Origin: Candidatus Omnitrophota bacterium
GTDB taxonomy: Bacteria > Omnitrophota > Gorgyraeia > Duberdicusellales > 4484-171
Reading direction: 5' to 3'
NCBI GenBank assembly: GCA_021735655.1
Contig: JAIPGM010000008.1
Location: forward strand, 5,922 to 69,921
DNA: 64,000 nucleotides
The position numbers and the translations under genes were made by a program. A model generated the notes under the pieces. That model was not told the DNA's origin and searched no databases. It saw nothing but the letters and a program-made list of their open reading frames with translations. Below are positions 17,605 to 36,354 of the stretch, piece after piece (within the stretch, counting starts at the first letter, position 1; every line of letters starts with the position of its first letter).

Positions 17605-17793
17605 ATGAGTGGTGAAATTTTAACTGTTGGCGATGTCTGTGAATATTTGAAGATACCACGTTCAACCCTTTATAAGCTTTCTAAAGATAAGATTATCCCG
17701 GCTTTTAGGGTTGGTCGGCACTGGCGTTTTCAAAAGGAAAAGATTGAAGCCTGGTTGGAGGGGCAAACTAGCGAAAAGGTTAGTCGGCAATAA
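17605..17793 (+). CDS. Excisionase/MerR-family helix-turn-helix DNA-binding protein
   Basis: LTVGDVCEYLKIPRSTLYKL...FRVGRHWRF is typical of the excisionase-family HTH_17; RBS aggagga. Confidence 0.65.
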   Translation: MSGEILTVGDVCEYLKIPRSTLYKLSKDKIIPAFRVGRHWRFQKEKIEAWLEGQTSEKVSRQ

Positions 17794-17794
17794 T

Positions 17795-18391: not shown

Positions 18392-19967
18392 GGGTTTAGT
18401 AAAAATAATTGTTTCTCGGACCATACCAGCCGATATTCCTAGTATAGTTCGGGCCCTAAGCAAAGTTGAAGAATTCCCTGAATATATAGCGACAATTAAA
18501 CAGGCCTCAATAATAGAAAAATCCCGTAACAAGATGAAAACGAAATGGCTTGTTCAGGTTGACCATGTCCCAATAAGTTGGATAGAGGAAGACACTTTAA
18601 ATCTTATAAAAAATACGATTACTTTTAAAGCCGTCGAAGGGGATTTGCAAGAATTTAAGGGGGAGTGGAAGTTTCAGGCTAAGCCTGAAGGAACCTTGGT
18701 TACTGTGACTGCTTATTTAAGAATCGACATACCAGCGATAAAAGATTTCGTTAATACTTATGTAGAAAAGATGCTAGTTAAGAATTTTACGGCGATATTA
18801 AAAGGTATCGAGAAGCGTTTAATTTCAATAAGATATAAAGGCCAGGGAAAAGATGAGATTAAAAAGATAGCCGGATTTGGAATCATTGGCCATTTGTATA
18901 ATTTTTATCATTTGGAAAAGTGCCTTAAGATGCTCAACCCTGACTTTAAGATGCCTTCACGAGAATTTTTGGGAAATCTGTTTAACGTTACTCCTTCGTT
19001 CAAGCTTTACGATATAGTAGACTTTAAGTCTAAATCCGGAGGTAGCGTTGATGGATGTTTCATTGTTGCCACTTTTATTCCTGATTTAATTGAAAAAGAT
19101 ATCTGGTCGATATTTTCGAAGGTGGTCCGGGCCTGTAAGATTGCTGAGAAACACGGGGTTGGTATAGTTACCTTAGGTGGCTTTACTTCGATTGTTGCCG
19201 AGCGGATTGGTCAGGCAATTAGTGAACAGGTTAACGTTCCGATTACCACTGGAAATACCTTTACTGCCGCAATGACCTTAGAAGGAGTTTATCGGGCGGT
19301 TAGAGCTTTAAATTTAGATATTGGTTCGTTAAAGGTAGCTATCGTTGGCGGGACCGGAGACATTGGAAGTGCTTGTGCTCGAGTTTTAGCTGATCAGGTC
19401 AAACAATTGTCTATAACTGGTAGGACCAAAGCTAATTTAAAACAGCTTAAACAAGAACTTAGCAAAAAGCATAAAGCCAGGATAGTTGCAACTACTAATA
19501 ATAAAAAGGCAGTAAGTGATGCTGATGTAATTATTGCTGCAGCTAGTGCTACCGAGTCAATACTTTCGATAGATTGGTTTAAGCCAGGGGCGATAATTTG
19601 CGATGTCGGCTACCCAAAGAATATTTCTTATGCCCAGACCGAAAGAGATGATATTCTTATTTTTTCTGGAGGTCTAGCTCGGAGCCCTAGTTCAATTAAG
19701 CTTCCGATTGATTTAGGCTTACCGAACTCGGAAGTTATCTATGGTTGTTTTGCTGAGGCGATTATTTTGTCTTTAGAAAAGCGTTATGAAAACTACAGTT
19801 TTGGTCGGGGAAATATTACTCCTGAGAAAATTAAAGAAATAAAAGAGCTAGGAGAAAAACACGGCTTTGAAGTTTCCCGATTCTGGTGGGGTGACAGGCT
19901 GCTCGATCAAGCGGCTATCGACAGAATAAAAGAAAGAGTTAATCTTGGAAAAGAACAACTAATATAA
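18381..19967 (+). CDS. Fusion protein: N-terminal SRPBCC (polyketide cyclase/START-like) domain + C-terminal acyl-ACP reductase (cyanobacterial AAR family)
   Basis: aa 1-150 SRPBCC-like. aa ~165-528 matches recalled AAR blocks: GIIGHL, LGGFTSI, TTGNTFTA, IVGGTGDIGSA, DVGYPKN, putative catalytic Cys in YGCFAEAI, NYSFGRGNIT, HGFE. Confidence 0.7.
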   Translation: MKNKGLVKIIVSRTIPADIPSIVRALSKVEEFPEYIATIKQASIIEKSRNKMKTKWLVQVDHVPISWIEEDTLNLIKNTITFKAVEGDLQEFKGEWKFQAKPEGTLVTVTAYLRIDIPAIKDFVNTYVEKMLVKNFTAILKGIEKRLISIRYKGQGKDEIKKIAGFGIIGHLYNFYHLEKCLKMLNPDFKMPSREFLGNLFNVTPSFKLYDIVDFKSKSGGSVDGCFIVATFIPDLIEKDIWSIFSKVVRACKIAEKHGVGIVTLGGFTSIVAERIGQAISEQVNVPITTGNTFTAAMTLEGVYRAVRALNLDIGSLKVAIVGGTGDIGSACARVLADQVKQLSITGRTKANLKQLKQELSKKHKARIVATTNNKKAVSDADVIIAAASATESILSIDWFKPGAIICDVGYPKNISYAQTERDDILIFSGGLARSPSSIKLPIDLGLPNSEVIYGCFAEAIILSLEKRYENYSFGRGNITPEKIKEIKELGEKHGFEVSRFWWGDRLLDQAAIDRIKERVNLGKEQLI

Positions 19968-19977
19968 GCTAAAGTTT

Positions 19978-20976
19978 ATGAAAGTGCTAGTTACCGGAGC
20001 TGACGGGTTTTTAGGTTCAAATCTGATTAGGCATTTGCTTGTTGCCGGGCATAAGGTTAAGGCCTTGATCCACAGTGATAAGGATTACGATGCTTTAAGC
20101 GGGCTTAAGGTTGATAAGTTAAAAGGCGACGTCCTTAGTCCAAAGTCGATTGATAAGGCAATGGCTGGGATTGATGCTGTATTCCATCTAGCCTCTTTAT
20201 ATAAGTTTTATCCTTGGTGGCAGAAAAAGGCTGGTCAGATCTATAAAGTAAATGTTCAAGGCACAAGAAATGTTTTAAAAGCCGCCAAAAAAAACAATAT
20301 CAAACGTTTTATTTTTACCAGCAGTATTGCTTCTTTAGGTAAACAGCTTGGTAAAAAACCGAGCGACGAAACAACCGTGCTTAATCTAAAAAGTAGAATT
20401 AGTCACTATGCCCGTTCAAAAGTATTAGCTGAAAATGAAGTTTTGAGTTTTGTCAGACAAGGCTTACCGGCAATAATTTTAAATCCAGCAGCTTTAATCG
20501 GTGAACGTGATTTTAAGCCAACCCCAACCGGTCAGATGATTATAGATTTTTTAAATCATAAGCTTCCGGTGACTTTTAATGGGATGATACCGTTGGCTGA
20601 TGTTGATGATGTAGCTAGGGCTCACCTGGTAGCTCTTGATAGGGGTAGAGTCGGTGAGCGTTATATTCTTTGTAATAATCGGGCCTATCCTTTGAAGGAG
20701 TTATTTTATTTAGTTGAGCAAATATCCGGAGTTTCTGCTCCGCGGTTAAAGATACCTTATCCTTTGTTAATGAGTTTTCTTTATTTTGATGAGGTTTTTT
20801 CTTATTTTTTAAAGAAAAGACCGCTTTTATCGAGCTCGGCGGCAAGATTTTTCCGCCGGGCAACGGTATTTGATAATAGTAAGGCAGCCAGGGAGTTGAG
20901 TTATGCGACCACTCCGATTACTACTAGTTTAGAAAAGGCCGTTAACTGGTATAAGGAAAATAGCTATGTCCAATAA
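19978..20976 (+). CDS. NAD-dependent epimerase/dehydratase family (extended SDR) oxidoreductase
   Basis: Rossmann VLVTGADGFLGSNLIRHL; YxxxK in SHYARSK. Confidence 0.75.
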   Translation: MKVLVTGADGFLGSNLIRHLLVAGHKVKALIHSDKDYDALSGLKVDKLKGDVLSPKSIDKAMAGIDAVFHLASLYKFYPWWQKKAGQIYKVNVQGTRNVLKAAKKNNIKRFIFTSSIASLGKQLGKKPSDETTVLNLKSRISHYARSKVLAENEVLSFVRQGLPAIILNPAALIGERDFKPTPTGQMIIDFLNHKLPVTFNGMIPLADVDDVARAHLVALDRGRVGERYILCNNRAYPLKELFYLVEQISGVSAPRLKIPYPLLMSFLYFDEVFSYFLKKRPLLSSSAARFFRRATVFDNSKAARELSYATTPITTSLEKAVNWYKENSYVQ

Positions 20977-21038: not shown

Positions 21039-23162
21039 ATGTTAGATCTGATTTTTAATCCAGCTAATTATTATTGGAATCCTCATGCGGTTCTCTATCA
21101 TTTAGTAGGAATTCTTACTTTGCTTGAGGGCATTTTTATTTTTAGTCAGAATCGTAAATCCTTAGTAAATTTAGCCTATGGCCTTAGTTGTTTATCAGTT
21201 GCTCTTTGGCTTACCGGAACCGGCATGGCTTTAAACAGTAAACTTGAACTAACTGCTTTAATTTGGACCAGGACTTATTTCTTTTTAGGAGTAATATTTA
21301 ATACTCCTTCGATATACTTTTTTTCAGTTGCTTGGCAGAAATCGCTTTTTCCTCAAGAGGAAAACAAAAAAATAAAAATAGTAATTTTTAACTTTCTTTG
21401 CGGTTTGGGGTTCTATATTTTTTGTCTTAACTCTAATCTTTTTATCCAGGGTTTCTGGAATCATTCCTGGGGGTTTTACCCTAAGGCCGGCAGTCTTTAT
21501 TTTATTTTTGTCGGTTGGGTTTATGCTTTGATGATGCTTATGTTGTTTAATTTCATCCAGGTTTACCGCAAGGGGGGTGATCCGGTTATAAAAAAACAAG
21601 CTAAATTAATGATTATTGCTTTTTCGATTGGCTACCTGGGCACAGCCGAGTTTTTGATGGACTATGGATTTACTCTTTATTTTTTAGCCTTTATTCCGGT
21701 GTTTATCTGTATTACTATTGTCGGTTACAGCGTTATTCGCTATCGGACTATGGATATTGAAACGGTAATCCATAAGACCGCTTTATGGATTTTTTCTTAT
21801 TCGCTTATTGCGGCTCCGATATTTTTTCTCTATAACGGGCTGTCTGAGAAGATTGAGAGTTCTAACTTATTGTTGTTTATTTTTTGGACAGCTAGTTTTT
21901 TGGCGGTTACCGTTTATTTACGGTTAATTCAACCAAAAATTGATCATTTTTTCCAAAGACGTAAAGCTAATTTGGAAGACATTTCTAGTGAATTTACCAA
22001 AAATCTTGTCCATTTAAAGGGTCTTAATCAGCTAATCGAACGCATCAAAGAAACAATCACTAATGCTTTTTATCCGCAGAATATCGATATTTTAATCTAT
22101 GGCCAGGATGATGAAAGATATCAAGATGAGCCATTTTTGCTTTGGTTGGTTAAGAATGACAAAATTGCCTATCGTGATTTTATTGAAATCGATCCGGCTT
22201 ATTCAGCAATTCGTAGCGATGCCAGAAAATATTTCGACTCAGTAGCCGCAGCGGTAGTTGTTCCTTTAGTTTTAAATGAACGTCTTTTGGGGGTAATTAA
22301 TTTAACCAGAAAATCAAACCTAAAACGCTACGCTGCCGTAGATTTTAATTTTTTACGTCTGCTGAAAAACCAGTCGGCAATTGCTATATCTAACTCTTTA
22401 GTTTATGAGAACATTGAAGAGCAGGTTAAAAGGCGGACTGAGGAGTTAGTTGAGGTGCAGAAGCAATTGATTCAGGCTGGAAAATTAGCTACTGTTGGTA
22501 CTTTGGCTGGAGGAGTAGCTCATGAGATAAATAATCCTTTGGCGGCAATTTTAACTAATGCTCAGATGTTGCTTATGTCACCGGATGAGCTCAATGTTGA
22601 GGAGGCCCGTGAATCATTAGAGTTAATCGAAGAGGCGACCAAGCGTTGTCGAACCATCGTCAGAAAATTAATGACCTATGCTCGAAAACCAGTAGAATCA
22701 ACAACAATTTCTAAAATAAACCTTATTGATGTTGTCAATAAGGTGAAAGCCTTCCTTGATTATCAGTTTAAGCAGGAAAATATTCAAATAGTTGTCGTTG
22801 CTGAAACTAGCAACTATCCGGTAGTCGGCAATCAGAATGAGTTAGAGCAGGTGGTAACCAATATAGTTTTAAATGCCAAGGATGCTACGAAGCGGGTTAA
22901 AAAAAGCGGCATTATAGATATATCGTTAATGAGCAATGATGGTTGGATAAGGCTGGATATCAAAGATCAAGGCTCTGGCATTTCAAAAGACCATGCTTTA
23001 AAGATTTTTGACCCCTTTTTTACTACTAAAGACGTAGGAAAGGGGTTAGGTTTGGGTCTTTCAATATCACAGTCGATCATTGAGAAGTATAAGGGTTCGA
23101 TTTTTTTTCATTCTCAGGAAGGTGAGGGCACTATTTTTACCATAAATCTGCCTGAGGCCTGA
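21039..23162 (+). CDS. Sensor histidine kinase (multi-TM N-terminus, GAF-like middle, HisKA + HATPase_c)
   Basis: About 9 N-terminal TM helices; H-box GVAHEINNPLAAI; N-box NAKDA; G-boxes DQGSGI and GLGLGLSIS. Confidence 0.8.
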   Translation: MLDLIFNPANYYWNPHAVLYHLVGILTLLEGIFIFSQNRKSLVNLAYGLSCLSVALWLTGTGMALNSKLELTALIWTRTYFFLGVIFNTPSIYFFSVAWQKSLFPQEENKKIKIVIFNFLCGLGFYIFCLNSNLFIQGFWNHSWGFYPKAGSLYFIFVGWVYALMMLMLFNFIQVYRKGGDPVIKKQAKLMIIAFSIGYLGTAEFLMDYGFTLYFLAFIPVFICITIVGYSVIRYRTMDIETVIHKTALWIFSYSLIAAPIFFLYNGLSEKIESSNLLLFIFWTASFLAVTVYLRLIQPKIDHFFQRRKANLEDISSEFTKNLVHLKGLNQLIERIKETITNAFYPQNIDILIYGQDDERYQDEPFLLWLVKNDKIAYRDFIEIDPAYSAIRSDARKYFDSVAAAVVVPLVLNERLLGVINLTRKSNLKRYAAVDFNFLRLLKNQSAIAISNSLVYENIEEQVKRRTEELVEVQKQLIQAGKLATVGTLAGGVAHEINNPLAAILTNAQMLLMSPDELNVEEARESLELIEEATKRCRTIVRKLMTYARKPVESTTISKINLIDVVNKVKAFLDYQFKQENIQIVVVAETSNYPVVGNQNELEQVVTNIVLNAKDATKRVKKSGIIDISLMSNDGWIRLDIKDQGSGISKDHALKIFDPFFTTKDVGKGLGLGLSISQSIIEKYKGSIFFHSQEGEGTIFTINLPEA

Positions 23163-23223: not shown

Positions 23224-23670
23224 ATGAATGATTTTTGGGATGTAAATAAAATAAAGAAGGTTTTACCTAAAGACTATCCTTTTCTTTTTATCGATCGGGT
23301 AGTTGAGATTGATTTGGTTGAAAAAAGGATAAAAGGCCTAAAAAATATAACCGTTAATGAGCATTTCTTTTCAAACCACTTTCCTGGTAAACCAATTATA
23401 CCAGGGGCAATTCTGGTTGAGGCAGCCTATCAGGCGAGTATTATTCTTTGTGTTGCTCTTGGTGAGGATAGCCAGTTTAAGATCGATTACTGTTTAGATA
23501 AGGTAGAGGCCAGTTTTTTTAGTAAGGTTAGAGCCGGAGATCAACTTATTTTAGAGGCCAAAGCCGAGAAACTAACAGCTAAAACAGCAGCAGTCAGAGT
23601 GGTTGTTTCAGTAAGTGACAATAAGTGTGCCGAGTTAACTGTTTTTTTAAAGCTAAATAAAGGGGGCTAA
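23224..23670 (+). CDS. FabZ/FabA-like hot-dog 3-hydroxyacyl-ACP dehydratase
   Basis: FFSNHFPGKPIIPGAILVEAAYQ, the FabZ catalytic His region. Confidence 0.7.
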   Translation: MNDFWDVNKIKKVLPKDYPFLFIDRVVEIDLVEKRIKGLKNITVNEHFFSNHFPGKPIIPGAILVEAAYQASIILCVALGEDSQFKIDYCLDKVEASFFSKVRAGDQLILEAKAEKLTAKTAAVRVVVSVSDNKCAELTVFLKLNKGG

Positions 23671-23671: not shown

Positions 23672-24049
23672 ATGGTTAAAAGAATTTTAATTATTGAAGA
23701 TGAACAGATAATAACTAAAAGTTTACAGCGTTTGCTAAAAAAAGAAGGTTATCAGGTAGAGATTTCTAATAACGGGGCAGATGCTCTTGAGAAAATAAAG
23801 GCTGGAGAGTTTAATTTAATAGTCAGCGACATTAGAATGCCAGATATGGATGGCATTGAGACAATTAAAGCTATTCGAAAGTCTCTCACCGAGCAGGGCA
23901 AGCCTTTGATTCCTGAGATATTAATTACCGGTTATGCTGATGAGTCTAAATATCAGGAAGCTTTGGAGCTAAAAGTTGCCGATTACCTCTATAAACCTTT
24001 TGACATTAAAGATTTCCTAGAGGCAGTTAGGAGAAATATCAATGCTTAA
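23672..24049 (+). CDS. Single-domain response regulator receiver
   Basis: ILIIEDE, LIVSDIRMPDMDG, conserved K in YLYKP. Confidence 0.8.
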   Translation: MVKRILIIEDEQIITKSLQRLLKKEGYQVEISNNGADALEKIKAGEFNLIVSDIRMPDMDGIETIKAIRKSLTEQGKPLIPEILITGYADESKYQEALELKVADYLYKPFDIKDFLEAVRRNINA

Positions 24050-24779
24050 AGGAAAAACTGCAATTATTAGCGGAGCCAGCCGTGGCATTGGCCGGGCTAT
24101 TGCAATGAAATTAGCCACCGAAGGTGCAAATATATCTTTTAGTTATTTAAACAGCAAAGTTGCTGCTGATAAATTAGAAAATGAGATCAATTCGCTGGGT
24201 GTAAAAGCTAAGGGCTATCAATTAGATATAAAGGATTTTGACTCAGTAAGTAAGTGGGTCAGTGATACTAAGGAAAGTTTCGGTGGTTTAGACATCATAG
24301 TTAATAATGCCGGAATTATTATTGATAAAGCTCTGGCCTTGATGGAACACTCAGATTGGAAGAGTGTTTTAGATACTAATTTAGGCGGTTTATTTAACTT
24401 AACCCGGGCAGCAATTATAACTTTAATAAAACAAAGGTCCGGTCAAATTATTAACATTACTTCGGTAACCGGAATGGTCGGGATGGCTCGTCAGACGAAT
24501 TATGCGGCAACTAAGGCCGGAATCATCGGCTTTACCAAGTCTTTGGCCAGAGAAGTTGGTTCTTATAATATAAGAGTTAATGCGATTGCTCCGGGCTTTA
24601 TTGAAACTGATATGCTCAGCGGCCTAAAAGATAAATATCGAGAAGATGTCACTCAACAAATTCCTTTGCGGCGGTTTGGCAAGCCTGAAGAAGTCGCTGG
24701 TTTGGTAAGTTTTTTGGCTAGTGAAAAAGCAGACTATATTACCGGCCAGGTAATAGTTGTTGATGGCGGGATGACTTAA
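24042..24779 (+). CDS. fabG: 3-oxoacyl-ACP reductase (FabG-type SDR)
   Basis: GASRGIGRAIA, NNAG, YAATKAG catalytic YxxxK. Confidence 0.85.
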   Translation: MLKGKTAIISGASRGIGRAIAMKLATEGANISFSYLNSKVAADKLENEINSLGVKAKGYQLDIKDFDSVSKWVSDTKESFGGLDIIVNNAGIIIDKALALMEHSDWKSVLDTNLGGLFNLTRAAIITLIKQRSGQIINITSVTGMVGMARQTNYAATKAGIIGFTKSLAREVGSYNIRVNAIAPGFIETDMLSGLKDKYREDVTQQIPLRRFGKPEEVAGLVSFLASEKADYITGQVIVVDGGMT

Positions 24780-24782: not shown

Positions 24783-26015
24783 ATGGATAAAACTGTTGTT
24801 GTAACTGGAGTCGGCGTACTTTCTCCAAACGGGATTGGCAAAGCTGCTTTTTGGCAGGCCTTAAAAGATGGTAAGTCGGGAATTAAGCCGATTACTATTT
24901 TTAATCCTGGTTTTTTTAAGAGTAAACAAGCCGGAGAGATATCTGATTTTAAGGCTGAGGAGTTTTTAGGGACAAAAGGACTTCAAAATACCGATCGAGC
25001 TACTAAATTAGTTTGTTCAGCCTCAAAGTTGGCCCTGGAGGATTCAGAGTTAAATATCACTGAGCGAAACACCGACAATATTGGAGTAGTTACCGGGACC
25101 ACACTTTCATTATGGAATATTGCTGAATTGAGTCGGGAAATGGTTGAAGACGGCCCGCAATTTGTTACTGCCGGAATTTTTCCCGGAACTACCATAAATA
25201 GCGCATCGAGCCAGATATCAATTCGTCATAAGATTAAAGGTTTTAATACTACGATTTCAACCGGCTATACTGCGAGCCTAGATGCTCTTAAATATGCTAC
25301 AAATTTCATTAAGCTTGGCCGAGCAAAGGCAGTTTTAGTCGCTGGAGTTGAAGGTTTAACTTTTGCCGGGTTTACTGGTTTTTATAAGATTGGTTTTTTA
25401 GCCGGCATAAAGGGGGAGGAAATATCCTGTCCTTTTGATAAAAGAAGGAATGGAATCGTTTTAGCTGAGGCAGCAGTAGTTTTAGTTGTTGAAGATGCTG
25501 AGCACGCTGAGGCCAGAGGAGCTAAGATTTATGCTGAGCTAGCTGCCATTGAGAATTCATTTGATGCTTTTCGGGCTGCTAAATATGAGCCTCAGGCTAG
25601 TGGTTTAAAAAGAACGATGCTTAAAGCTTTAAAGTCAGCTAAGCTGCATGGGGAAGATATTGATTATGTTTCTTCAGCGGCTAATTCAGTTCCTCAGCAG
25701 GATGCTTTAGAGACTATGGCAATAAAGGAAGTTTTTAATATTTATGCTGAGAAGACTCCGGTAAGCGCAATTAAGTCAATGGTTGGTGAGTCGGTGAGTG
25801 CCGGAGGAATCATGCAACTGACAGCCGCTTTAGGTTCCCTTGAAGAAGGGTTTATCCCGCCGACAATAAATTATCGAGAAAAAGATCCTGAATGTGACCT
25901 TGACTACGTAGTTAATCAGGCTAGATCGCAAGAAGTAAACAATATATTAGTGAATAATTTTGGTCCTGGCGGCAATAATGCCACGGTTGTCGTCAAAAAA
26001 TACGGAGGTGTATAG
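24783..26015 (+). CDS. Ketosynthase-like chain-length-factor (KS-beta / ApeC-like), catalytically inactive
   Basis: Thiolase fold, but active-site Cys replaced (ISTGYTASLDA) and both His positions lost (SAANSVPQQD; KSMVGESVSAGG). Confidence 0.7.
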   Translation: MDKTVVVTGVGVLSPNGIGKAAFWQALKDGKSGIKPITIFNPGFFKSKQAGEISDFKAEEFLGTKGLQNTDRATKLVCSASKLALEDSELNITERNTDNIGVVTGTTLSLWNIAELSREMVEDGPQFVTAGIFPGTTINSASSQISIRHKIKGFNTTISTGYTASLDALKYATNFIKLGRAKAVLVAGVEGLTFAGFTGFYKIGFLAGIKGEEISCPFDKRRNGIVLAEAAVVLVVEDAEHAEARGAKIYAELAAIENSFDAFRAAKYEPQASGLKRTMLKALKSAKLHGEDIDYVSSAANSVPQQDALETMAIKEVFNIYAEKTPVSAIKSMVGESVSAGGIMQLTAALGSLEEGFIPPTINYREKDPECDLDYVVNQARSQEVNNILVNNFGPGGNNATVVVKKYGGV

Positions 26016-26266
26016 TGGTACCCGAAGATTTAGGAAAACAAATTAAGGATATAGTCGCAAGAGTTATTGAAATTGAGCTTGATCAGGTTACTCCCGATGC
26101 TGACTTTATTAATGATTTGGGAGTAGATTCTTTGAAGGCAATTGAGATTACCGGAGCCATTGAGAAAGCCTTTCGGGTAGTTGTGCCGGAAGAAAAGATT
26201 CGTGATATTCGCACCCTTAACCAGGCGATCAGTTTAACTCAGCAGCTGCTCCAAGCAAAAGGATAA
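26015..26266 (+). CDS. Acyl carrier protein
   Basis: 83 aa; phosphopantetheine attachment LGVDSLKAIEI. Confidence 0.8.
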   Translation: MVPEDLGKQIKDIVARVIEIELDQVTPDADFINDLGVDSLKAIEITGAIEKAFRVVVPEEKIRDIRTLNQAISLTQQLLQAKG

Positions 26267-26268: not shown

Positions 26269-26718
26269 TTGAAAATGACTTGGGATAAAGAAAAAGTAAA
26301 GTCTATTCTGCCGCAAAGAGAACCTTTTTTATTTATTGATGAGGTAATTGAGGTAGATGAAGGTAAAAGAATAGTTGCTAAGAAGTATCTTGATCCTAAA
26401 GCTGATTTTTTCAAGGGGCATTTTCCCGGTAATCCGGTTATGCCTGGGGTTTTAACTATTGAAGCTATGGCTCAGGCGGCAATATTAGTTTATTCAACCG
26501 CAAAACCAGAAATAGCCAAGAAGAGGCCAGATTATTATTTTGGTAGCGTTAAGGCAAAGTTTAAATTGCCAGTTTTTCCTAATGAAACATTAATTTTAGA
26601 GGCCGAAATTATTAAAGTTACTGATTTTGGCGGAGTAGTAGATACAATTGCCAGAGTAAAAGATAAAGTAGTAGCTCAAGCAAGCAGTACTTTTGGGGTG
26701 AAGTTGAGAGATGAATAA
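26269..26718 (+). CDS. FabZ-like 3-hydroxyacyl-ACP dehydratase
   Basis: FFKGHFPGNPVMPGVLTIEAMAQA canonical FabZ motif. Confidence 0.8.
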   Translation: MKMTWDKEKVKSILPQREPFLFIDEVIEVDEGKRIVAKKYLDPKADFFKGHFPGNPVMPGVLTIEAMAQAAILVYSTAKPEIAKKRPDYYFGSVKAKFKLPVFPNETLILEAEIIKVTDFGGVVDTIARVKDKVVAQASSTFGVKLRDE

Positions 26719-27931
26719 CGATAGACGAGTAGTGGTAACTGGTATTGGGGTAATCTCAGCAGTTGGTAATGGCAAAGAGACTTTCTGGAAAGCAATCAAG
26801 GAGGGAAAGTCCGGAATAAGCGAAATTACTTCAATGGATACTTCAGTTTATAAGTGCCACTTAGGTGGTGAGGTGAAGGATTTTAATCCTGAAGAGTTTA
26901 TTCCTAAGCGGAGAATAAAATTTCTTGGGAGATCTTCTCAACTAGCCATAGCTGCATCAAGTCTCGCTTTAAAAGATGCTAAGCTTGACTATAAAAGCAC
27001 TGAAAGAAAGGAAATGGGGGTTATTGTTGGGACAACTACTGGCGAACGACCCTTGGAGGAGCTTTTAGCCTCTTGGGCTAAGGGTGGCTTTAAAGATGTT
27101 GACCGGGCAAAAGTATTTCAAGCCACAGTGAATAATATTTCGGCTAATGTTGGAATAGAGTTTAAGGCTCGAGGGGTAAATTATCTTATTCCTACGGCTT
27201 GCGCTGCCGGAAATTACGCAATCGGTTGTGGATTTGATTTAATTAGAAGTGGGGATTTAAACTTTGCTTTAGTTGGCGGAGCCGATGCTTTTTCTAAATT
27301 TGCTTTTACCGGGTTTCAAAGGATTTATGCTATGAGCCCTGACTTTATGCGTCCTTTTGATAAAAATAGAAGAGGGATGATGCAGGGGGAAGGTTCGGGA
27401 ATGCTTCTCCTAGAGTCTTACAAATCAGCTAAGAAAAGAGGTGCTGATATCTATGCTGAGGTTTTAGGCTATGGCTTATCTTGTGATGCTTATCATGCGA
27501 CAGCACCTGATCCAAAAGGAATAGCTAAAGTTATGGAGAAGGCCTTAGCTGAGACCGGCCTAACCTATAAAGATGTAGATTATATTTGTGCTCATGGAAC
27601 CGGAACCGGTCCAAATGATAAGGCCGAGTGCATAGGTATTAAGGCGGTTTTTAAAGAACGCTCTAAAGAGATTATGGTTAGTTCAATAAAATCTATGCTT
27701 GGTCATGCTATGGGGGCAGCTTCGGCAATTGAAGCAGCTGCTTGTTGCCTAGCGGTCAAAGATGATATCGCGCCGCCAACCATAAACTATGAGACCCCTG
27801 ATCCTGATTGTGACATAGATTGTGTCCCGAATAAAGCCAGAAAGGCAAAGATTAATGTAGCCCTTAATAATGGTTTTGCTTTTGGCGGTAACAATGCCTG
27901 CGTGGTTATTAAAAAAATAGAAGATGCCTAA
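26711..27931 (+). CDS. Beta-ketoacyl-ACP synthase (KAS I/II-type, Cys-His-His)
   Basis: Active Cys TACAAGNYA; His AHGTGTGPND; His KSMLGHAMGAAS; C-terminal GFAFGGNNA. Confidence 0.85.
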   Translation: MNNDRRVVVTGIGVISAVGNGKETFWKAIKEGKSGISEITSMDTSVYKCHLGGEVKDFNPEEFIPKRRIKFLGRSSQLAIAASSLALKDAKLDYKSTERKEMGVIVGTTTGERPLEELLASWAKGGFKDVDRAKVFQATVNNISANVGIEFKARGVNYLIPTACAAGNYAIGCGFDLIRSGDLNFALVGGADAFSKFAFTGFQRIYAMSPDFMRPFDKNRRGMMQGEGSGMLLLESYKSAKKRGADIYAEVLGYGLSCDAYHATAPDPKGIAKVMEKALAETGLTYKDVDYICAHGTGTGPNDKAECIGIKAVFKERSKEIMVSSIKSMLGHAMGAASAIEAAACCLAVKDDIAPPTINYETPDPDCDIDCVPNKARKAKINVALNNGFAFGGNNACVVIKKIEDA

Positions 27932-29405
27932 TAAATATGACGTTATAGTTATTGGCGCTGGGATCGGCGGATTAACTGCTGCTGCCATACTAGCCAGAAA
28001 TGGCAAAAAGGTGTTGGTTTTGGAGAAGAATCCTATAGCCGGAGGTTATGCGGTTAATTTTAAGAGGGGTGAGTTTGAGTTTGATGCTTCTTTACATTTG
28101 CTAAACGGGTTTTTTCCTGGAAAACCAACTTATCACTTTTTGCAATTAGCCGGAATTGATAATAAAGTAACTTTTTTAAAACCCGAATATCTTTATCGTT
28201 CAGTTTTTCCGGATTACGATATCAGAGTGCCACAATGTGACCCTAAAGCCTATATTAATATTTTAGCTAAATATTTTCCTAAAGATAAGCCCAAGCTTGA
28301 AGAATTATTTAGTTTGATGTATCGTATATTTTGTCGAATTCAAGATATCGAAGGTGACAAAATATCACCGGCTGAGTTAACTGGTTATATCGGTAAGACC
28401 CATCAAGATGTTTTAGATGAATTCAAAATTAGTAATCAGCTGGCCGCTTTAATATCACAAGTTTGGCCTTTTATTGGTACCCCGCCGTCTCAGCTTCCTT
28501 TTTTAGTTTTTTTGTCATCTTTCAGTGATTTTATTTACAATGGTGGATATTATCCGAAAGGCGGCGGCCAAGCAATTTCAGATGCTTTGGTTGATGTAAT
28601 TTGTGAGAACCAAGGAGAAGTTATTTTCAAAGAAAAGGTTAGCAAAATTCTTATCGAAGGTAATTCAGCGTATGGTTTAGTGGACCAATTCGGTAATGAG
28701 TTTTTTGCCAAAGAAATAATTTCAAACATTGATGCTAATTTTCTTTTCGGTGAGTTGATTGAAAATAAATATTTGCCTAGTGATTTTTTAGATAAAGTTT
28801 CTCGTTTTAAGCCATCAATTTCGGCTTTCCAGGTTTACTTAGGTTTAGATATCGAAGCAGGCAAACTCGCTATAAACGACTATACTATATTTTCTAATCC
28901 TGACTATGACTTATCTAAACAATATCAAGAATCTTTGGTTAATAATGTTGAGGTGGTTCCTATAGAAATAAGTTTTCATAACTCTCTGTTTGATTCTGGC
29001 TTTCCTAAATCAAGCACTTTGAGTATAGTTTCTTTGGCCGGCTATGATTTTTGGCAAAATCTATCAAAACAAGAATATGCGGTAAAAAAGAAAAAATTGG
29101 CCGATATTTTAATTAAGCGAGCTGAAGACTTTATTCCTGGTTTATCGGGAAGGATTAAATTGATTAATATAGCTACGCCAATTACTATGGAGCGTTATAC
29201 CGGGAATTCAGCTGGTGCTATTTATGGTTGGAGCCAAACTATGGATCAATATGGTTCAAAGAGGATGCGGCAGAATACACCAATTGATAATCTTTTTCTT
29301 GTTGGAGCCTGGACTAGACCAGCAGGAGGAGTTTCTGGGGCAATGCAATCCGGAGCAATGGTATCGAAAAAAATCCTAATTAATGCAGCTAATGTCAAAA
29401 AATAA
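27924..29405 (+). CDS. FAD/NAD(P)-dependent oxidoreductase, phytoene-desaturase (CrtI)-like family
   Basis: N-terminal dinucleotide fold VIVIGAGIGGLTAAAILARNGKKVLVLEKNPIAGG; length and C-terminal pattern typical of the CrtI/amine-oxidase superfamily. Confidence 0.7.
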   Translation: MPNKYDVIVIGAGIGGLTAAAILARNGKKVLVLEKNPIAGGYAVNFKRGEFEFDASLHLLNGFFPGKPTYHFLQLAGIDNKVTFLKPEYLYRSVFPDYDIRVPQCDPKAYINILAKYFPKDKPKLEELFSLMYRIFCRIQDIEGDKISPAELTGYIGKTHQDVLDEFKISNQLAALISQVWPFIGTPPSQLPFLVFLSSFSDFIYNGGYYPKGGGQAISDALVDVICENQGEVIFKEKVSKILIEGNSAYGLVDQFGNEFFAKEIISNIDANFLFGELIENKYLPSDFLDKVSRFKPSISAFQVYLGLDIEAGKLAINDYTIFSNPDYDLSKQYQESLVNNVEVVPIEISFHNSLFDSGFPKSSTLSIVSLAGYDFWQNLSKQEYAVKKKKLADILIKRAEDFIPGLSGRIKLINIATPITMERYTGNSAGAIYGWSQTMDQYGSKRMRQNTPIDNLFLVGAWTRPAGGVSGAMQSGAMVSKKILINAANVKK

Positions 29406-30702
29406 AAGAATTGTTGTTACTGGATTGGGTCCTTTGTCAGCCATTGGTATGGGCAAGGAGGCTTTATGGAAGTCTGTTTTAGCAGAAAAGACGGGATTGA
29501 CTTTAGAAAAATACAGTATCAATGGTCAGGAATTGGGTGACTATTATGCCCATCGGATCAAAGATTTTGATATTAACGATTTTAATATTGATAAAAATAT
29601 TTTGGAAGATATTAAGGCTTGGAAAGAGCAAGCTAATCCCATCGATCTTTTTTATCTTTTGGCTGTAGTTAAGTTAGCTCTGAGTGATTCCAAAATAAAC
29701 TATACTAATAGAGCTGAAACAGAAAGATTAGGGTTGATAGTAACGCATGAGAATCCTGGCCTAGACCAATTCTATGAAGAAGTCATAAACGAGTCTTATG
29801 ATTTTCTAGTAAAGGGTAATAATAGTGTAATTTCTCGGAAGGATTATTTTCAAGAATTTTATCGAAAATTCGCCAAACGCGGTTACGAACTCCAGACTTT
29901 TATGCCGCTTTTTCATTTAGCTAAAGTTTTTAATATCCATAATTACTCTATATTCTTATGCAATGCTTGTGCTTCGGGTTTATTTGCCGTCGAGGCAGCC
30001 GCTGATATTATTAAAAGTGGTAAATGTAACACAGTTGTGGTTGCCGGGTCAGATTGTACCAGTATTTTTAAATATCTTTGGTTCAAAGGATTAGATATGT
30101 ATGCTGAAGATGGTAAGATAAAGCCCTTTGCTAAAAATAGGAATGGTTTTGTTACTGGCGATGGTGGAGCTGGCATCGTATTAGAAGATTTATATAGCGC
30201 GTTAGAAAGAGGCGCTCATATTTATGCTGAATATTTAGGAGGAGGATTTCATTTAGAGGGTTGGAAAGTTGCTATGCCGGAGATAAACGGTGATTCATAC
30301 AAAAAAGCTATCATGCAATCTTTGCAAAGAAGTGATGTTCCAAAAGAGGCAATCGATTTACTTGTACCTCATGGCGTGGGAACTACGGCTGCCGATTATT
30401 ATGAGGCAAAGGCTATTACGAGTATATTTGGTAAAAATTGTAAAAAACCTTTAATGGCAGCTTTGAAGCCTTATATCGGCCATAATTTGGGAAGCACAGC
30501 CCTATTGGAATTAGCAATTTCAATATTAGCTTTAGAGAATAATTATTTACCAAAAACACTCAATCTTACCGAAGTTGATCCAAAATTAGGAGTTAATTTA
30601 GTGACTACTTCTAAAGCTTATGATATGCGAACATTGATGAAGACAGCTTGTGGATTTGCCGGTTACAATGGTTCAGTTATTCTAAAAAAATATACTAAAT
30701 GA
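29383..30702 (+). CDS. Second beta-ketoacyl synthase-like protein with divergent N-terminal region
   Basis: Cys in NACASGLFA; His in PHGVGTTAAD and YIGHNLGSTA. First ~110 aa unlike FabF; start overlaps the upstream gene. Confidence 0.7.
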   Translation: MQLMSKNKRIVVTGLGPLSAIGMGKEALWKSVLAEKTGLTLEKYSINGQELGDYYAHRIKDFDINDFNIDKNILEDIKAWKEQANPIDLFYLLAVVKLALSDSKINYTNRAETERLGLIVTHENPGLDQFYEEVINESYDFLVKGNNSVISRKDYFQEFYRKFAKRGYELQTFMPLFHLAKVFNIHNYSIFLCNACASGLFAVEAAADIIKSGKCNTVVVAGSDCTSIFKYLWFKGLDMYAEDGKIKPFAKNRNGFVTGDGGAGIVLEDLYSALERGAHIYAEYLGGGFHLEGWKVAMPEINGDSYKKAIMQSLQRSDVPKEAIDLLVPHGVGTTAADYYEAKAITSIFGKNCKKPLMAALKPYIGHNLGSTALLELAISILALENNYLPKTLNLTEVDPKLGVNLVTTSKAYDMRTLMKTACGFAGYNGSVILKKYTK

Positions 30703-32891
30703 TAGTTTTTAATCTTTTTACAATTTCAGGCTTACTAACTGGAATTACTTGCTCTTTCTTGGCGGTTATTTTACTTATTTTTGGTCGGGTAAAAGAAGTT
30801 AAGCTGACTCGTTTATGGATGATTTTCAACACTGTTGTTGCTCTTTGGGATTTTAGTTTATTTTTTATTGGTCAAGCGACAAATAGTTTAGTTGCTTTTG
30901 ATCGGTGGAGGCTAGCTCATGTACCGGGCTTACTTATAGCCCCGCTTTTTTTACATGTTATTTATGTGTTTTGTGGTATTCAGCGACGTAAGTTTTTGGT
31001 TTTTTCCTATTTAGCCGCATTAACCTATATAGTTTTAGACTCTTTTAATTTATTAAGCTATACGACCCAATTAATTTTTGGGGCGTTTTACTATATTAAA
31101 CCGATTGGTCCGCAATACACTGCATTTGCTACTCTTTGGCTTTATATCATTGCACACTCTTTGTTTGTTTTGTTTCGTTTCTATAGAACTGCTTCTGGCC
31201 ATAAGAAAAACCAAGCTTTATATTTTTTAATTGTAATGCTAGTTGGATTTAGCGGGGGATCAACCCATTTTATTACCGCAATCGCTTTTTCTAAAGGTAT
31301 TCAAATATATCCTTTTGGGCAATTAGGTGTAGCTTTGTATTGTATAGTAGCTACTTACGCTATCCTTAAATACCGCCTTATGGATGTTAGAATATTTGTT
31401 TCCCGGGCCGCGGCTTTTCTCATTAGTTATCCTTTCTTTTTGAGTATTCCTTTTATTTTTGCTTATAGGACGCAAGTAGAGCTTCATTCTTTGATGGGTG
31501 CTAATTGGTGGCTTGTGCCGGCTGGTTTAATTATCTTTTTTTCCAGTTTATCACCGATAGCCTATAGCCAATTAAAAATTAGGATGGAGGAAAAGCTTCT
31601 GGCGGATCAGAAGCGTTACCAAAAATTACTACTTCAGGCAGCAAGTGGTATGGCTACTGAGCATAATTTGAATAAACTTTCAAAACTCATTGTTTATATT
31701 GTTAAGCGGGCGGTAAAGGTAGAATTTGCGACTATTTTTATCGATGATAAAAATGATGGGGTTTACCGGATGAAAGCTTTTCGGGATACACAACGGGAAG
31801 CGCCATTTGCAAATGTGACCTTTCTTTATGAGCACTCTTTTATTAGATATCTAGCTAAGCATAGCGAACCTTGCATTTATGAAGAGTTACCAGAAGAGAT
31901 TAGGGCTTCTTTGGGGGCATTTTCTAGCGCAGCTTTAGTTATACCTTCAGCTGTTCAAGATGAGCTTTTAGGTTTTGTTATTCTAGGGGCAAAGCTTAAT
32001 AAACAACCCTATAGTGATGACGATGTAAATGTTTTTAAGATTCTTTCGCATCAAGCAGCCTTGGCTATTGAGAATAGTTTATTTCTAGAGGAAACTAAAC
32101 AGGCACAGGAGAAGATATTTGCTGCCGAGAAGCTAGCTTCAATCGGTGGCATGGCTGACGGAGTGGCCCATCAGATTAAAAATCGTCTTAATCAATTTTC
32201 AGTAGCTAGTGGTGAGTTAAAGTATGAAATAAAAGATTATTTAGCCAAGCATCCGGCGATTACTAAAAATAATAAGGATTTGAAGAAAACCCTTAAATAT
32301 CTTACTGAAATAGCCGACTCTCTCATAAATAATGTAAAGCGTACTGATGGGATAGTTAAGGGAATCCTTAACTTTGCCCGAGTGGAAGAGACCAGCACTT
32401 TTTTCTCTCAGTTTTCTTTAAAAGAGGTAATTGATTTGTCTGCCGAACTATTAAAGATAAAACATGAGATTTTCGAAGCTCCTTTGGATATTAAGCTAGG
32501 TTCTTCAGATACTGTTTATGGTATAAAATCTCAAATTACCGAGGCGGTTTATAACTTATTAGATAATGCTTATGAAGCTACTCAGGAGAAGAGAGCTCTC
32601 ATGACCAAAGAAGGTAGGGATGGTTTTAATCCTCTAATTAAGATTAAGTTAACTCATAAGGCAGGCGTAAATTTGCTTGAAATTTCCGACAATGGTATTG
32701 GGATGAGAGATGAAGATAAAGCGAAAGTGTTTGCACCCTTTTTTACTACCAAATCGTCTTATAAATCAGGAACTGGAATCGGGGTGTATGTTGTTAAGCG
32801 TATGATTGAAGAGAATCATAAGGGCAAGGTTCACTTTAGTTCCACTTACATGGAGGGAACTAAATTTTTTGTAGAATTGCCAAAAAAATGA
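30699..32891 (+). CDS. Sensor histidine kinase (multi-TM, GAF, HisKA, HATPase_c)
   Basis: About 8 TM helices; H-box GVAHQIKNRLNQF; HATPase DNGIGM and GTGIGVYVV. Confidence 0.8.
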   Translation: MIVFNLFTISGLLTGITCSFLAVILLIFGRVKEVKLTRLWMIFNTVVALWDFSLFFIGQATNSLVAFDRWRLAHVPGLLIAPLFLHVIYVFCGIQRRKFLVFSYLAALTYIVLDSFNLLSYTTQLIFGAFYYIKPIGPQYTAFATLWLYIIAHSLFVLFRFYRTASGHKKNQALYFLIVMLVGFSGGSTHFITAIAFSKGIQIYPFGQLGVALYCIVATYAILKYRLMDVRIFVSRAAAFLISYPFFLSIPFIFAYRTQVELHSLMGANWWLVPAGLIIFFSSLSPIAYSQLKIRMEEKLLADQKRYQKLLLQAASGMATEHNLNKLSKLIVYIVKRAVKVEFATIFIDDKNDGVYRMKAFRDTQREAPFANVTFLYEHSFIRYLAKHSEPCIYEELPEEIRASLGAFSSAALVIPSAVQDELLGFVILGAKLNKQPYSDDDVNVFKILSHQAALAIENSLFLEETKQAQEKIFAAEKLASIGGMADGVAHQIKNRLNQFSVASGELKYEIKDYLAKHPAITKNNKDLKKTLKYLTEIADSLINNVKRTDGIVKGILNFARVEETSTFFSQFSLKEVIDLSAELLKIKHEIFEAPLDIKLGSSDTVYGIKSQITEAVYNLLDNAYEATQEKRALMTKEGRDGFNPLIKIKLTHKAGVNLLEISDNGIGMRDEDKAKVFAPFFTTKSSYKSGTGIGVYVVKRMIEENHKGKVHFSSTYMEGTKFFVELPKK

Positions 32892-36188: not shown

Positions 36189-36322
36189 GGCTTAAACCTC
36201 CCTCTAAGGTTCTGTCGCTTGGCAAAGATGATTTCAGAGATTCTAAGCAAATCTCAGAAATTAGATTAGCGACACCGCAGGTGGAGCAAAGGAAACCTGG
36301 AAGCAAAAAAGTTGATTTTTTG

Positions 36323-36354
36323 TTGCCAAAATTGCCCGCTCTCAAAAATGGCGG
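36323..36354. repeat. Right copy of the 32-bp inverted repeat
   Basis: ttgccaaaattgcccgctctcaaaaatggcgg is the reverse complement of 34749..34780. Confidence 0.85.

Follow-up and report, generated by a model that had tools for sequence, protein, structure and literature searches.

The locus studied here raises the question of what a ketosynthase-like protein without catalytic residues is maintained for, when two ketosynthases of the active type are encoded a short distance downstream. The window, that is, the whole stretch of DNA analysed, is 64,000 nucleotides long, and the protein in question is called KS1 below. Our answer, to which we assign a probability of roughly 0.78, is that KS1 is a stably maintained non-catalytic ketosynthase paralogue, and that, by homology to a characterised anammox pair, it is most likely the heterodimer partner of the active ketosynthase KS2.

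KS1 and its lost catalytic triad

The features of KS1 are as follows.

24783..26015, + strand: KS1, triad-less full-length ketosynthase fold (Y162/A299/E336, with K331 kept and P395 at the gate)
25179..25193, + strand: F133-P-G-T136-T137, helix-loop-helix motif, aligned with amxFabFmut F135/T138/V139
25266..25268, + strand: Tyr162 codon TAT, at the catalytic Cys position (E. coli FabF C163/164)
25677..25679, + strand: Ala299 codon GCG, at the first catalytic His position
25788..25790, + strand: Glu336 codon GAG, at the second catalytic His position

The ORF has an ATG start and encodes 410 aa, and both Pfam ketosynthase domains are matched over their full length (PF00109, 1.8e-34; PF02801, 3.2e-23). 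As the initial annotation stated, KS1 is directly upstream of an ACP: the KS1 stop codon and the GTG start of the 83-aa ACP (26015..26266; PF00550) overlap, and this ACP has the DSL serine. In a HMMER alignment to B. subtilis FabF, the Cys, the first His (His1) and the second His (His2) are all replaced, and the same loss was found in a MAFFT alignment of E. coli FabF, B. subtilis FabF, ApeO/ApeR, the B. fulgida pair and KS1. The local motifs are STG-Y-TASLDA at the Cys site, SS-A-ANSVP at His1 and VG-E-SVS at His2, while Lys331 is retained and the gating Phe has become Pro395. The initial annotation was therefore right that the whole triad is substituted and that both His are lost (to Ala299 and Glu336), but its reading of Thr in place of Cys came from a one-residue mis-registration. 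The Cys is replaced by Tyr162, and Thr163 is the conserved residue that normally comes next after it, as in A-C-T-SG of E. coli FabF.

With all three catalytic residues gone and the gating Phe now Pro, KS1 might be a pseudogene in decay, or a leftover of a fabF duplication that no longer has a function. However, the 410-aa frame is intact and can be aligned over its whole length with a homologue of known crystal structure, and the replacements are themselves conserved. Among the best 120 database homologues (59-100% identity, all of 404-419 aa), the Cys site is Y in 103 and F in 17, the His1 site is A in 67, S in 51, and P and T in one each, and the His2 site is E in 119 and D in one; the Lys and the gate Pro are found in every sequence. 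The dN/dS against two orthologues is 0.04-0.06, with synonymous sites saturated, and strong purifying selection acts on KS1. The position of the gene is also conserved in operons of two phyla. AlphaFold2 predicts a confident, complete ketosynthase fold (pLDDT 94.2) that superposes on B. subtilis FabF (4ls5) with a TM score of 0.96 and an rmsd of 1.6 A, and a Foldseek search of the PDB likewise returned a FabF-like fold for the model. Since the substitutions are conserved in 120 homologues and dN/dS is about 0.05, KS1 is not a pseudogene. The degraded gene that the initial annotation had named as a possible objection was not found, and the relic explanation is effectively refuted already, retaining next to no weight in our assessment.

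The active ketosynthases and the anammox heterodimer

The other genes of the operon are listed below in map order.

17711..18391, + strand: PlsC/LPLAT-type acyltransferase, synteny conserved
18381..19967, + strand: SRPBCC lipid-binding domain fused to an acyl-ACP-reductase-like domain, proposed reductive release enzyme
19978..20976, + strand: extended-SDR NAD(P) reductase (Epimerase / 3-beta-HSD / NAD_binding_4)
21039..23162, + strand: multi-pass membrane histidine kinase (GAF, HisKA, HATPase), position upstream of the KS genes conserved
23224..23670, + strand: FabZa, second FabZ-like dehydratase, from domain searches
23672..24049, + strand: receiver-only response regulator inside the operon, synteny conserved
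24042..24779, + strand: FabG-type 3-oxoacyl-ACP reductase, 3 nt upstream of KS1
26015..26266, + strand: dedicated ACP with DSL motif
26269..26718, + strand: FabZb, 3-hydroxyacyl-ACP dehydratase, His/Glu motif present
26711..27931, + strand: KS2, active-type ketosynthase (C164/H295/H332), proposed catalytic partner of KS1
27924..29405, + strand: CrtI/phytoene-desaturase-family FAD oxidoreductase, from domain searches and homology to B. fulgida PDH
29383..30702, + strand: KS3, divergent ketosynthase (C196/H330/H367) with insertions in the N-terminal half
30699..32891, + strand: second membrane histidine kinase (GAF, HATPase), start overlapping the KS3 stop
33029..33406, + strand: response regulator, conserved at the cluster 3' end
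33418..34605, + strand: HD-GYP-type phosphodiesterase, conserved at the cluster 3' end

Start and stop codons overlap or abut from the receiver-only response regulator through the second kinase. The two Cys-His-His ketosynthases that the initial annotation had placed downstream are both there, and each carries Cys-His-His-Lys-Phe. FabG scores 311.8 bits against TIGR01830, above the cut-off of 297.75, and the product of 18381..19967 matches the PigE N-terminal region (1.7e-53) and, below the cut-off, TIGR04058 (1.1e-50).

The best solved matches of four products of this operon are four anammox Cluster I proteins. KS1 matches 9s5h_C, the amxFabFmut of B. fulgida (E 4.7e-110, 46% identity), and KS2 matches 9s5h_B, the amxFabF2 of the same organism (E 5.4e-140, 55% identity); both B. 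fulgida proteins give reciprocal best hits in the window. The ACP matches the amxACPs 7qv0_D, 7auf and 9s5i_E (47% identity), and FabZb matches the amxFabZ 7qv0_A (43% identity). The CrtI-like protein is 31% identical, over the full length, to the PDH homologue of B. fulgida Cluster I; Kuste3607 had no CrtI activity (PMC4790861). In the phylogeny of the three ketosynthase-like proteins, which had been proposed as a check and was computed by NJ, KS1 and amxFabFmut fall in one clade without any Cys-His-His member in 98.5% of 200 bootstrap replicates, and KS2 clusters with amxFabF2 and the N-terminal KS domains of two didomain proteins (92%). KS3 is on a long, unstable branch and joins KS2/amxFabF2 to the exclusion of FabF in 11.5% of the bootstraps. 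KS1 is not in the nearest sub-clade to amxFabFmut, and because the internal nodes of the triad-less clade are weakly supported, strict orthology between the two is not established.

The anammox proteins amxFabF2 and amxFabFmut were shown experimentally to form a KS/CLF-like heterodimer in a 2026 preprint (bioRxiv 10.64898/2026.05.19.726425). There, the subunits are inactive apart and active together, and malonyl-ACP decarboxylation and acetoacetyl-ACP formation need both of them, as is known from K. stuttgartiensis and B. fulgida only. The ACP contacts both subunits, and residues F135/T138/V139 of amxFabFmut line the acyl tunnel of the partner ketosynthase, where mutation alters the chain-length preference. 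As acetoacetyl-ACP was the only product made in vitro, an elongation role of the anammox pair is unproven. The tunnel residues F135 and T138 are kept in KS1 as F133 and T136, which are conserved in at least 90% of sequences. From the identities of 46% and 55% to the two members of this characterised pair, we infer a KS1:KS2 heterodimer.

The likeness between KS1 and amxFabFmut (Kuste3606 / Broful02170; 9s5h chain C) lies in a full-length FabF-like fold with the triad lost; His2 is replaced by Glu in KS1, B. fulgida amxFabFmut and Kuste3606, and the Lys is retained. On the other hand, the Cys site is Tyr/Phe in the KS1 family and Val in amxFabFmut (Thr in S. brodae), the His1 site is Ala/Ser rather than Asn, and the gate residue is Pro rather than Arg. 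Another protein of this kind, compared by its published residues, is Kuste2805 (the 'non-canonical FabB' of kuste2802-2805; Rattray 2009, Table 2). It has an aromatic Cys site (Phe163), Glu at His2 and the Lys kept, and is encoded beside the active FabF kuste2804 as KS1 has an active ketosynthase in its operon. Unlike KS1, it has Asn at His1 and retains the gate Phe, and the kuste2802-2805 cluster contains a radical-SAM enzyme, which the KS1 operon does not. When the charges in the dimer-interface motifs were simply counted, the electrostatic asymmetry described for the pair was not recovered, even with the B. fulgida proteins themselves, and such a count has no bearing on the pairing of KS1.

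At the level of gene order, the B. fulgida locus (L058) reads ACP-FabZ-FabF2-FabFmut-PDH-rSAM, and homologues of five of these six genes, including the amxACP-like ACP, the amxFabZ-like dehydratase and the CrtI-like flavoprotein, lie in the same operon here. The order here is FabG-KS1-ACP-FabZ-KS2-PDH-KS3, with KS1 and KS2 separated by the ACP and FabZb, whereas the pair is adjacent in B. fulgida. The cobalamin-dependent radical-SAM gene of anammox Cluster I (Kuste3608 type) is absent, while FabG, a second FabZ, KS3 and genes for reductive release, an acyltransferase and two-component signalling are additional. The host, represented by a MAG, is a member of the Omnitrophota instead of an anammox planctomycete.

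Omnitrophota and Nitrospirota share the operon in conserved form, including FabG, KS3, the acyl-ACP-reductase-like enzyme, the acyltransferase and the two sensor kinases. Operons were counted as orthologous (subfamily A) when KS1 has at least 45% identity, and a partner was counted only where the downstream sequence is covered. Under this definition, a KS2-type gene is found in 10 of 10 orthologous operons with downstream coverage, as well as in all six of the anammox loci examined that are of the B. fulgida type or a variant of it. We weighed against the KS1:KS2 pair the alternative that KS1 partners KS3 instead, or acts as a homodimeric acyl-ACP-binding pseudoenzyme, for example a scaffold, chaperone or regulator for FabG/FabZ. 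KS3 is a poor candidate in that about half of the orthologous operons lack it, and no KS3 homologue was found in seven anammox-type loci examined. Both His, Lys335 and the gating Phe are invariant in the 120 homologues of KS3. In favour of the alternative, FabG directly precedes KS1 in nearly all loci, and a sister subfamily (subfamily B; about 50% identity, F-A-E-K-P signature) adjoins FabG and FabZ beside riboflavin genes. Two subfamily B loci examined in detail (L019, L024) have no ketosynthase within 10 kb, and a neighbouring partner ketosynthase is therefore not obligatory. In addition, S. brodae amxFabFmut crystallised as a homodimer, and amxFabFmut has a second tunnel to the dead triad that can hold a ligand (bioRxiv 10.64898/2026.05.19.726425). 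Against this stand the requirement of the characterised homologues for each other and the frequency of natural fusions of a ketosynthase with a dead one in the wider family: of the 150 representatives listed at 50% identity, about 55 are fusions of about 820 aa, with a Cys-His-His KS domain and a triad-less one. Overall, we regard a KS1 that does not pair with KS2 as unlikely.

Type II polyketide synthases, aryl polyenes and housekeeping FabF

The initial annotation described the locus as following the KS-alpha/KS-beta logic of type II PKS and aryl-polyene systems rather than that of housekeeping FAS. The general part of this description holds, as an inactive KS paralogue accompanies an active KS outside a housekeeping context, but KS1 is neither an actinorhodin-type CLF nor an ApeC. 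The housekeeping FabFs of E. coli and B. subtilis have the same fold and length as KS1 (33-38% identity), yet KS1 is triad-less and belongs to a specialised operon that lacks both fabD and fabH. Its scores also stay below the curated FabF cut-offs, with 340.7 against 493.75 for the NCBIfam model TIGR03150 and 327.9 against 387 for NF005589.

In actinorhodin-type CLFs, Gln replaces the active-site Cys. The type II PKS CLFs (1tqy_B, Iga12) are, like KS1, full-length inactive KS paralogues; they form a heterodimer with an active KS and shape the acyl or polyketide tunnel, as is proposed for KS1. Actinorhodin CLF and Iga12 were compared through phmmer E-values and the published alignments of the preprint, outside the multiple alignment. 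The phmmer E-values of KS1 are 4.7e-110 for 9s5h_C, 2.2e-75 for B. subtilis FabF (4ls5) and 4.4e-53 for the actinorhodin CLF (1tqy_B), which makes this CLF a poor comparator; KS1 is closer to FabF, its Cys site does not hold Gln, and its gene does not directly follow that of the partner KS. Among solved structures from outside anammox bacteria, KS2 is closest to the ishigamide ketosynthase Iga11 of a highly reducing type II PKS, which is also its second-best solved match. Asp113, the Iga11-type release residue, aligns with Thr110 of KS2, and this feature is not shared.

The aryl-polyene system (ApeO-ApeC and ApeR; E. coli CFT073, L002, and the A. baumannii structures) resembles the present operon in having a dedicated KS/CLF pair and a second Cys-His-His ketosynthase, together with a KR, dehydratases, a PlsC-like acyltransferase and no ER. 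ApeC, however, is a single thiolase half of 240 aa (PMC8358021), while KS1 has 410 aa with both halves, and no similarity between KS1 and the ApeC of CFT073 was detectable (BLASTP E 0.45), so that ApeC does not serve as a comparator either. A Pfam search of ORFs of at least 90 aa in the first ~54 kb found no aryl-starter activation, second ACP, thioesterase, glycosyltransferase or LolA/MMPL export, and the PlsC-like acyltransferase is the only context gene shared with the aryl-polyene cluster.

The possibility that KS1 is an actinorhodin-type CLF or an ApeC, and that the cluster leads to an aromatic polyketide or an aryl polyene, draws on the combination of KS, inactive KS, ACP, KR and DH without ER, on the SRPBCC 'polyketide cyclase' domain nearby, on the Iga11 match and on the resemblance to ApeO-ApeC plus ApeR (PMC8358021). 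We judge it to be very unlikely. KS1 has Tyr instead of Gln and lacks both His needed for KSQ-type decarboxylation. The SRPBCC domain forms part of a reductase fusion, and the scanned ORFs of the window include no cyclase or aromatase standing by itself, no aryl-starter ligase and no ammonia-lyase.

A proposed lipid pathway and the ladderane question

By homology to the B. fulgida and K. stuttgartiensis pair, neither KS1 nor KS2 would work alone, and the dedicated ACP would be bound across both. The KS2 active site would decarboxylate malonyl-ACP to give acetoacetyl-ACP for priming and then carry out elongation, and the KS1 motif with F133, T136 and T137 would form part of the acyl tunnel wall and bias the chain length. 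The subsequent steps are more weakly indicated. Each round may be processed by FabG and the two FabZ proteins. The 64-kb window has no homologue of FabD, FabH or PlsX and encodes no enoyl reductase; without enoyl reductase, FabD and FabH, the chain would perhaps stay unsaturated or be completed by enzymes of housekeeping synthesis. The CrtI-like flavoprotein might modify the unsaturation pattern, and KS3 might add or speed some elongation steps. Release as an aldehyde or alcohol could be performed by the SRPBCC/acyl-ACP-reductase-like enzyme with the SDR or, alternatively, the PlsC-like acyltransferase could load the chain onto a lipid backbone. The product may be a specialised membrane lipid whose synthesis is under the two membrane sensor kinases. 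What the product is, and what the PDH, KS3 and the reductase do, is guessed from the domains present.

How ladderanes are made has long been an open problem, in which, to our knowledge, the amxFabF2/amxFabFmut heterodimer is the only step characterised biochemically so far. We know of ladderanes only from anammox Planctomycetota, and of no cultured members of the phylum Omnitrophota. That only one of the six gene types of anammox Cluster I is lacking might suggest that the cluster is a ladderane pathway and that this bacterium makes ladderane lipids. However, there is no ORF of at least 90 aa with CxxxCxxC in the 64-kb window, and the B. fulgida rSAM has no tblastn match in the window or in the subfamily A loci. 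Without the B12 radical-SAM enzyme that the anammox cluster has, no ladderane is expected. Calls of the antiSMASH 'ladderane' type were reported, and found expressed, in Omnitrophota MAGs (bioRxiv 10.1101/2022.12.20.521206), but Desulfotalea psychrophila, with similar clusters, yielded no ladderanes (PMC2649909). A ladderane product is thus extremely improbable.

As a tentative proposal, which we hold to be possible but doubtful, the Omnitrophota/Nitrospirota operon could be a natural 'minus radical-SAM' counterpart of Cluster I. The shared module (KS/CLF-like pair, ACP, FabZ and CrtI-like protein) might then be an older, widespread anaerobic route to mid-chain (poly)unsaturated acyl-ACP that is not specific to ladderanes. 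The Omnitrophota product would be released reductively into an undescribed, kinase-controlled membrane lipid, and the anammox bacteria would have added the radical-SAM cyclisation. If this holds, the working premise of a Cluster I found in ladderane producers alone would be contradicted, and the rSAM step rather than the KS pair would be the ladderane-specific chemistry. Earlier reports already exist of the KS/CLF-like logic, of the triad-less paralogue and of 'ladderane-type' calls outside anammox bacteria, and the gain is therefore incremental. Still, well-conserved homologues of amxFabF2 and amxFabFmut occur here in non-anammox phyla, without rSAM and with the matching ACP, dehydratase and flavoprotein. 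They offer a comparative handle for separating the generic lipid chemistry from the ladderane-specific parts of the anammox cluster, and they suggest that Omnitrophota have a lipid pathway that is uncharacterised and apparently under sensor control.

A ketosynthase fold without its catalytic triad

The ORF at 24783..26015 (+), KS1, encodes 410 aa, in which each of the two ketosynthase Pfam domains is matched from end to end. Its residues were placed by HMMER alignment to B. subtilis FabF, together with a MAFFT alignment including E. coli FabF (MG1655), ApeO, ApeR and ApeC (CFT073) and two Brocadia fulgida proteins. In both, the catalytic Cys position is occupied by Tyr162 (STG-Y-TASLDA), the first His position by Ala299 and the second by Glu336, so that all three catalytic residues are substituted as the initial annotation had claimed. 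In essence the observation holds, but one residue needs correcting: Thr had been named as the replacement of Cys through a one-residue mis-registration, and is in fact the next residue, a site held by Thr or Ala in active enzymes. Lys331 (FabF Lys335) is retained, and the gating Phe position is Pro395. KS1 is 100% identical to a GenBank protein of a Candidatus Omnitrophica MAG.

KS1 is the fourth gene in a tightly packed plus-strand run:

Genes of the run, by start position and strand
23224, +, FabZ-like dehydratase
23672, +, receiver-only response regulator
24042, +, FabG
24783, +, KS1
26015, +, acyl carrier protein (ACP)
26269, +, second FabZ-like dehydratase
26711, +, KS2
27924, +, CrtI-family flavoprotein (PDH)
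29383, +, KS3
30699, +, membrane histidine kinase

Most junctions between 23224 and 30699 overlap or abut, which makes the run a single operon. The ACP lies directly downstream of KS1, and two intact ketosynthases follow, both as first described; each has the full Cys-His-His-Lys-Phe set (C164/H295/H332 in KS2, C196/H330/H367 in KS3). Homologue searches of the window and Pfam/NCBIfam scans, the Pfam scans covering ORFs of at least 90 aa up to about 54 kb, found no FabD, FabH, PlsX or enoyl reductase. For KS3, GenBank starts three codons later (29383-29394) and gives a 436-aa "hypothetical protein", the longest ORF being 439 aa; its homologues are often annotated just as [quoted passage not shown].

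The alternative that KS1 is a degraded pseudogene was checked and not upheld. Among the 120 database proteins nearest to it (59-100% identity, 404-419 aa), the Cys site is Y in 103 and F in 17; the first His site is A in 67, S in 51, and P and T in one each; the second is E in 119 and D in one; Lys and the gate Pro are invariant (120/120). The dN/dS is 0.058 and 0.038 against the orthologues in loci L007 and L013, and in two more orthologue pairs synonymous sites are saturated with dN of about 0.1. An AlphaFold2 model from a 40-sequence alignment has pLDDT 94.2 and pTM 0.94, and its superposition on B. subtilis FabF gives a TM of 0.96 at an rmsd of 1.6 Å. Since conserved replacements, low dN/dS, a confident complete fold and this superposition concur, KS1 is not a pseudogene but a conserved, triad-less ketosynthase, folded by prediction.

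It is not a housekeeping FabF either, as the initial annotation had held: the triad is missing and its scores fall below the curated family cut-offs. Actinorhodin-type chain-length factors (CLFs) carry Gln at the active-site Cys position. KS1 has no Gln there and resembles FabF more than it does 1tqy_B, so this assignment was rejected; so was ApeC, which is half-size (PMC8358021) and has no detectable similarity to KS1.

Relation to anammox Cluster I

The best solved-structure matches of KS1 and KS2 are chains C (E 4.7e-110) and B (E 5.4e-140) of 9s5h, which are amxFabFmut and amxFabF2, the inactive and active ketosynthase subunits of B. fulgida (Granatino et al., bioRxiv 10.64898/2026.05.19.726425). 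According to the same preprint, each is inactive alone, and the two co-purify as a heterodimer that contacts the ACP through both subunits, decarboxylates malonyl-amxACP and forms acetoacetyl-ACP; Phe135 and Val139 of amxFabFmut are lining residues of the live subunit's acyl tunnel, and their mutation shifts chain-length preference; moreover, the nearest structural neighbour of amxFabFmut is likewise B. subtilis FabF. Thus the KS-alpha/KS-beta reading of the initial annotation stands in its logic, but the closest relative is amxFabFmut and not an actinorhodin-type CLF or ApeC. By analogy, KS1 is like a chain-length factor in how it would act.

Pairwise identity is 46% for KS1-amxFabFmut and 55% for KS2-amxFabF2, against 33-40% with E. 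coli FabF, and each B. fulgida ketosynthase has its proposed counterpart as top match in the window. The window ACP matches best, among solved structures, the anammox-specific amxACP (7qv0_D, 7auf, 9s5i_E), and the second FabZ (26269) matches amxFabZ (7qv0_A). The B. fulgida locus has the order ACP-FabZ-FabF2-FabFmut-PDH-rSAM, of which the first five have window homologues, PDH at 31% identity over its full length (E 2e-67). The radical-SAM enzyme has no homologue in the window, and no window ORF of at least 90 aa contains a CxxxCxxC motif; because this enzyme is absent, a ladderane product is unlikely. On every sequence-level comparison made, save for this companion gene, KS1 agrees with the amxFabFmut kind. 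The six Cluster I genes lie on one strand (L058:7905-14159, contig WBZR01000232.1) with FabF2 upstream of FabFmut, opposite to the preprint text, which places amxFabFmut "just upstream" of amxFabF2. Kuste3607, an anammox PDH homologue, does not desaturate phytoene (PMC4790861).

Distribution and phylogeny

A scan of species-representative genomes gave 21 loci whose identity to KS1 is 45% or higher, labelled only as Omnitrophota, uncultured Planctomycetia/Planctomycetales MAGs or Nitrospirae/Nitrospiraceae. Most closer-subfamily loci with an identity of 60% or above (L003, L005, L007, L012, L013) keep the whole neighbourhood: PlsC-like acyltransferase, SRPBCC/acyl-ACP-reductase-like protein, (SDR reductase), kinase, response regulator, FabG, KS1, ACP, FabZ, KS2, (KS3), (PDH), kinase, response regulator, HD-GYP. 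L025 and L026 (45-46%) keep just the CLF-KS2-ACP-PDH core. In closer-subfamily loci with coverage, KS1 is co-encoded with an amxFabF2-type ketosynthase and a matching ACP and dehydratase; KS2 is present wherever the sequence reaches far enough, and KS3 and PDH are variable. The kind of protein to which KS1 belongs was described in 2009 and characterised biochemically in 2026, and KS1 extends it to a new phylum and operon context. The chief value is comparative, as it shows that the anammox KS/CLF-ACP-FabZ-PDH module also occurs outside ladderane producers. Beyond anammox bacteria, "ladderane-type" antiSMASH clusters and their expression had already been reported, for Omnitrophota and for other phyla (bioRxiv 10.1101/2022.12.20.521206), and Desulfotalea psychrophila, with syntenic clusters, makes polyunsaturated hydrocarbons and no ladderanes (Rattray et al., PMC2649909).

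Neighbor-joining (distance) trees were built from the ketosynthase domains of 150 listed 50%-identity representatives and reference sequences, aligned to one profile. KS1 falls among stand-alone triad-less proteins that share an x-x-E-K signature and form a large clade, amxFabFmut included; in 98.5% of 200 bootstraps KS1 and amxFabFmut sit together in a clade that has no Cys-His-His member. A sister relationship of KS2 and amxFabF2 is recovered in 68% of replicates, and in 92% these two group with two didomain N-terminal domains, the group lying among PKS-like ketosynthases and away from housekeeping FabFs. KS3 has no stable placement. Deep nodes within the triad-less clade are poorly supported, so KS1 may be the strict orthologue of Kuste3606 or of a different anammox paralogue; one such paralogue is Kuste2805, whose triad positions read Phe/Asn/Glu (Rattray 2009, PMC2649909). 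About 55 of the 150 listed representatives are fusions of about 820 aa (e.g. P0121, P0123, P0126), mostly an N-terminal Cys-His-His domain followed by a C-terminal triad-less one. Such natural fusions argue that active and triad-less domains work as a pair.

A sister subfamily of triad-less proteins (L014-L024, L040, L079; e.g. L024:10001-12475), about 50% identical to KS1, is followed by only FabG and a FabZ. Its 50%-identity representatives P0122 and P0124 show an F-A-E-K-P signature. In L019 and L024, examined in detail, the gene directly follows riboflavin-biosynthesis-like genes (identified by N-terminal sequences only), and no Cys-His-His ketosynthase occurs within 10 kb on either side. 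Another variant (L081:8394-14935) reads ACP-KS-(34%-identity triad-less KS)-FabG-PDH, and L025 and L012 each have two tandem PDH paralogues.

Proposed mechanism and neighbouring features

From their characterised homologues, KS1 and KS2 would form an obligate heterodimer, with KS2 as the subunit responsible for malonyl-ACP decarboxylation, priming and condensation. A helix-loop-helix motif of KS1 would contribute to the wall of the tunnel and to the surface on which the ACP docks; here F133 and T136, at least 90% conserved, correspond to F135 and T138 of amxFabFmut, and T137 replaces V139. More tentatively, gene content suggests that FabG and the two FabZ could process every round without a dedicated enoyl reductase, and that the flavoprotein and KS3 might modify or extend the chain, which may be likened to ApeR complementing ApeO-ApeC (PMC8358021). 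The acyl-ACP-reductase-like enzyme matches the PigE N-terminal region (1.7e-53) and TIGR04058 (1.1e-50, below cut-off); with the SDR it might free the chain as an aldehyde or alcohol; alternatively, the acyltransferase might place the chain on a lipid.

Two GAF-bearing multi-pass membrane histidine kinases (21039-23162 and 30699-32891), two receiver-only response regulators (23672-24049 and 33029-33406) and an HD-GYP protein (33418-34605) are syntenic with the lipid genes across Omnitrophota (L003, L007, L012), which suggests sensor-controlled lipid remodelling. More c-di-GMP-related genes are two PilZ-domain proteins (249-629, 4455-4853) and a GGDEF/HD-GYP fusion (47006-48568).

Immediately 3' of the cluster, tRNA-Ser(GGA) (34664..34754) is run through by the 3' end of a large serine recombinase ORF (34620..36188, -). 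Beyond it, GC falls to 31-32% at 38-42 kb with reversed GC skew, and the low-GC stretch carries a ClpP/SDH-like protease (37182..38384) and an Mrr-type restriction endonuclease (40782..41882); the interval 34620-43000 has the look of an element integrated at this tRNA. Elsewhere, a 1068-aa ORF (8237..11443) without any Pfam match adjoins an alginate-export-like outer-membrane protein (11841..13223), with a TPR-rich Wza-type polysaccharide export protein (13353..15248) in the same neighbourhood.
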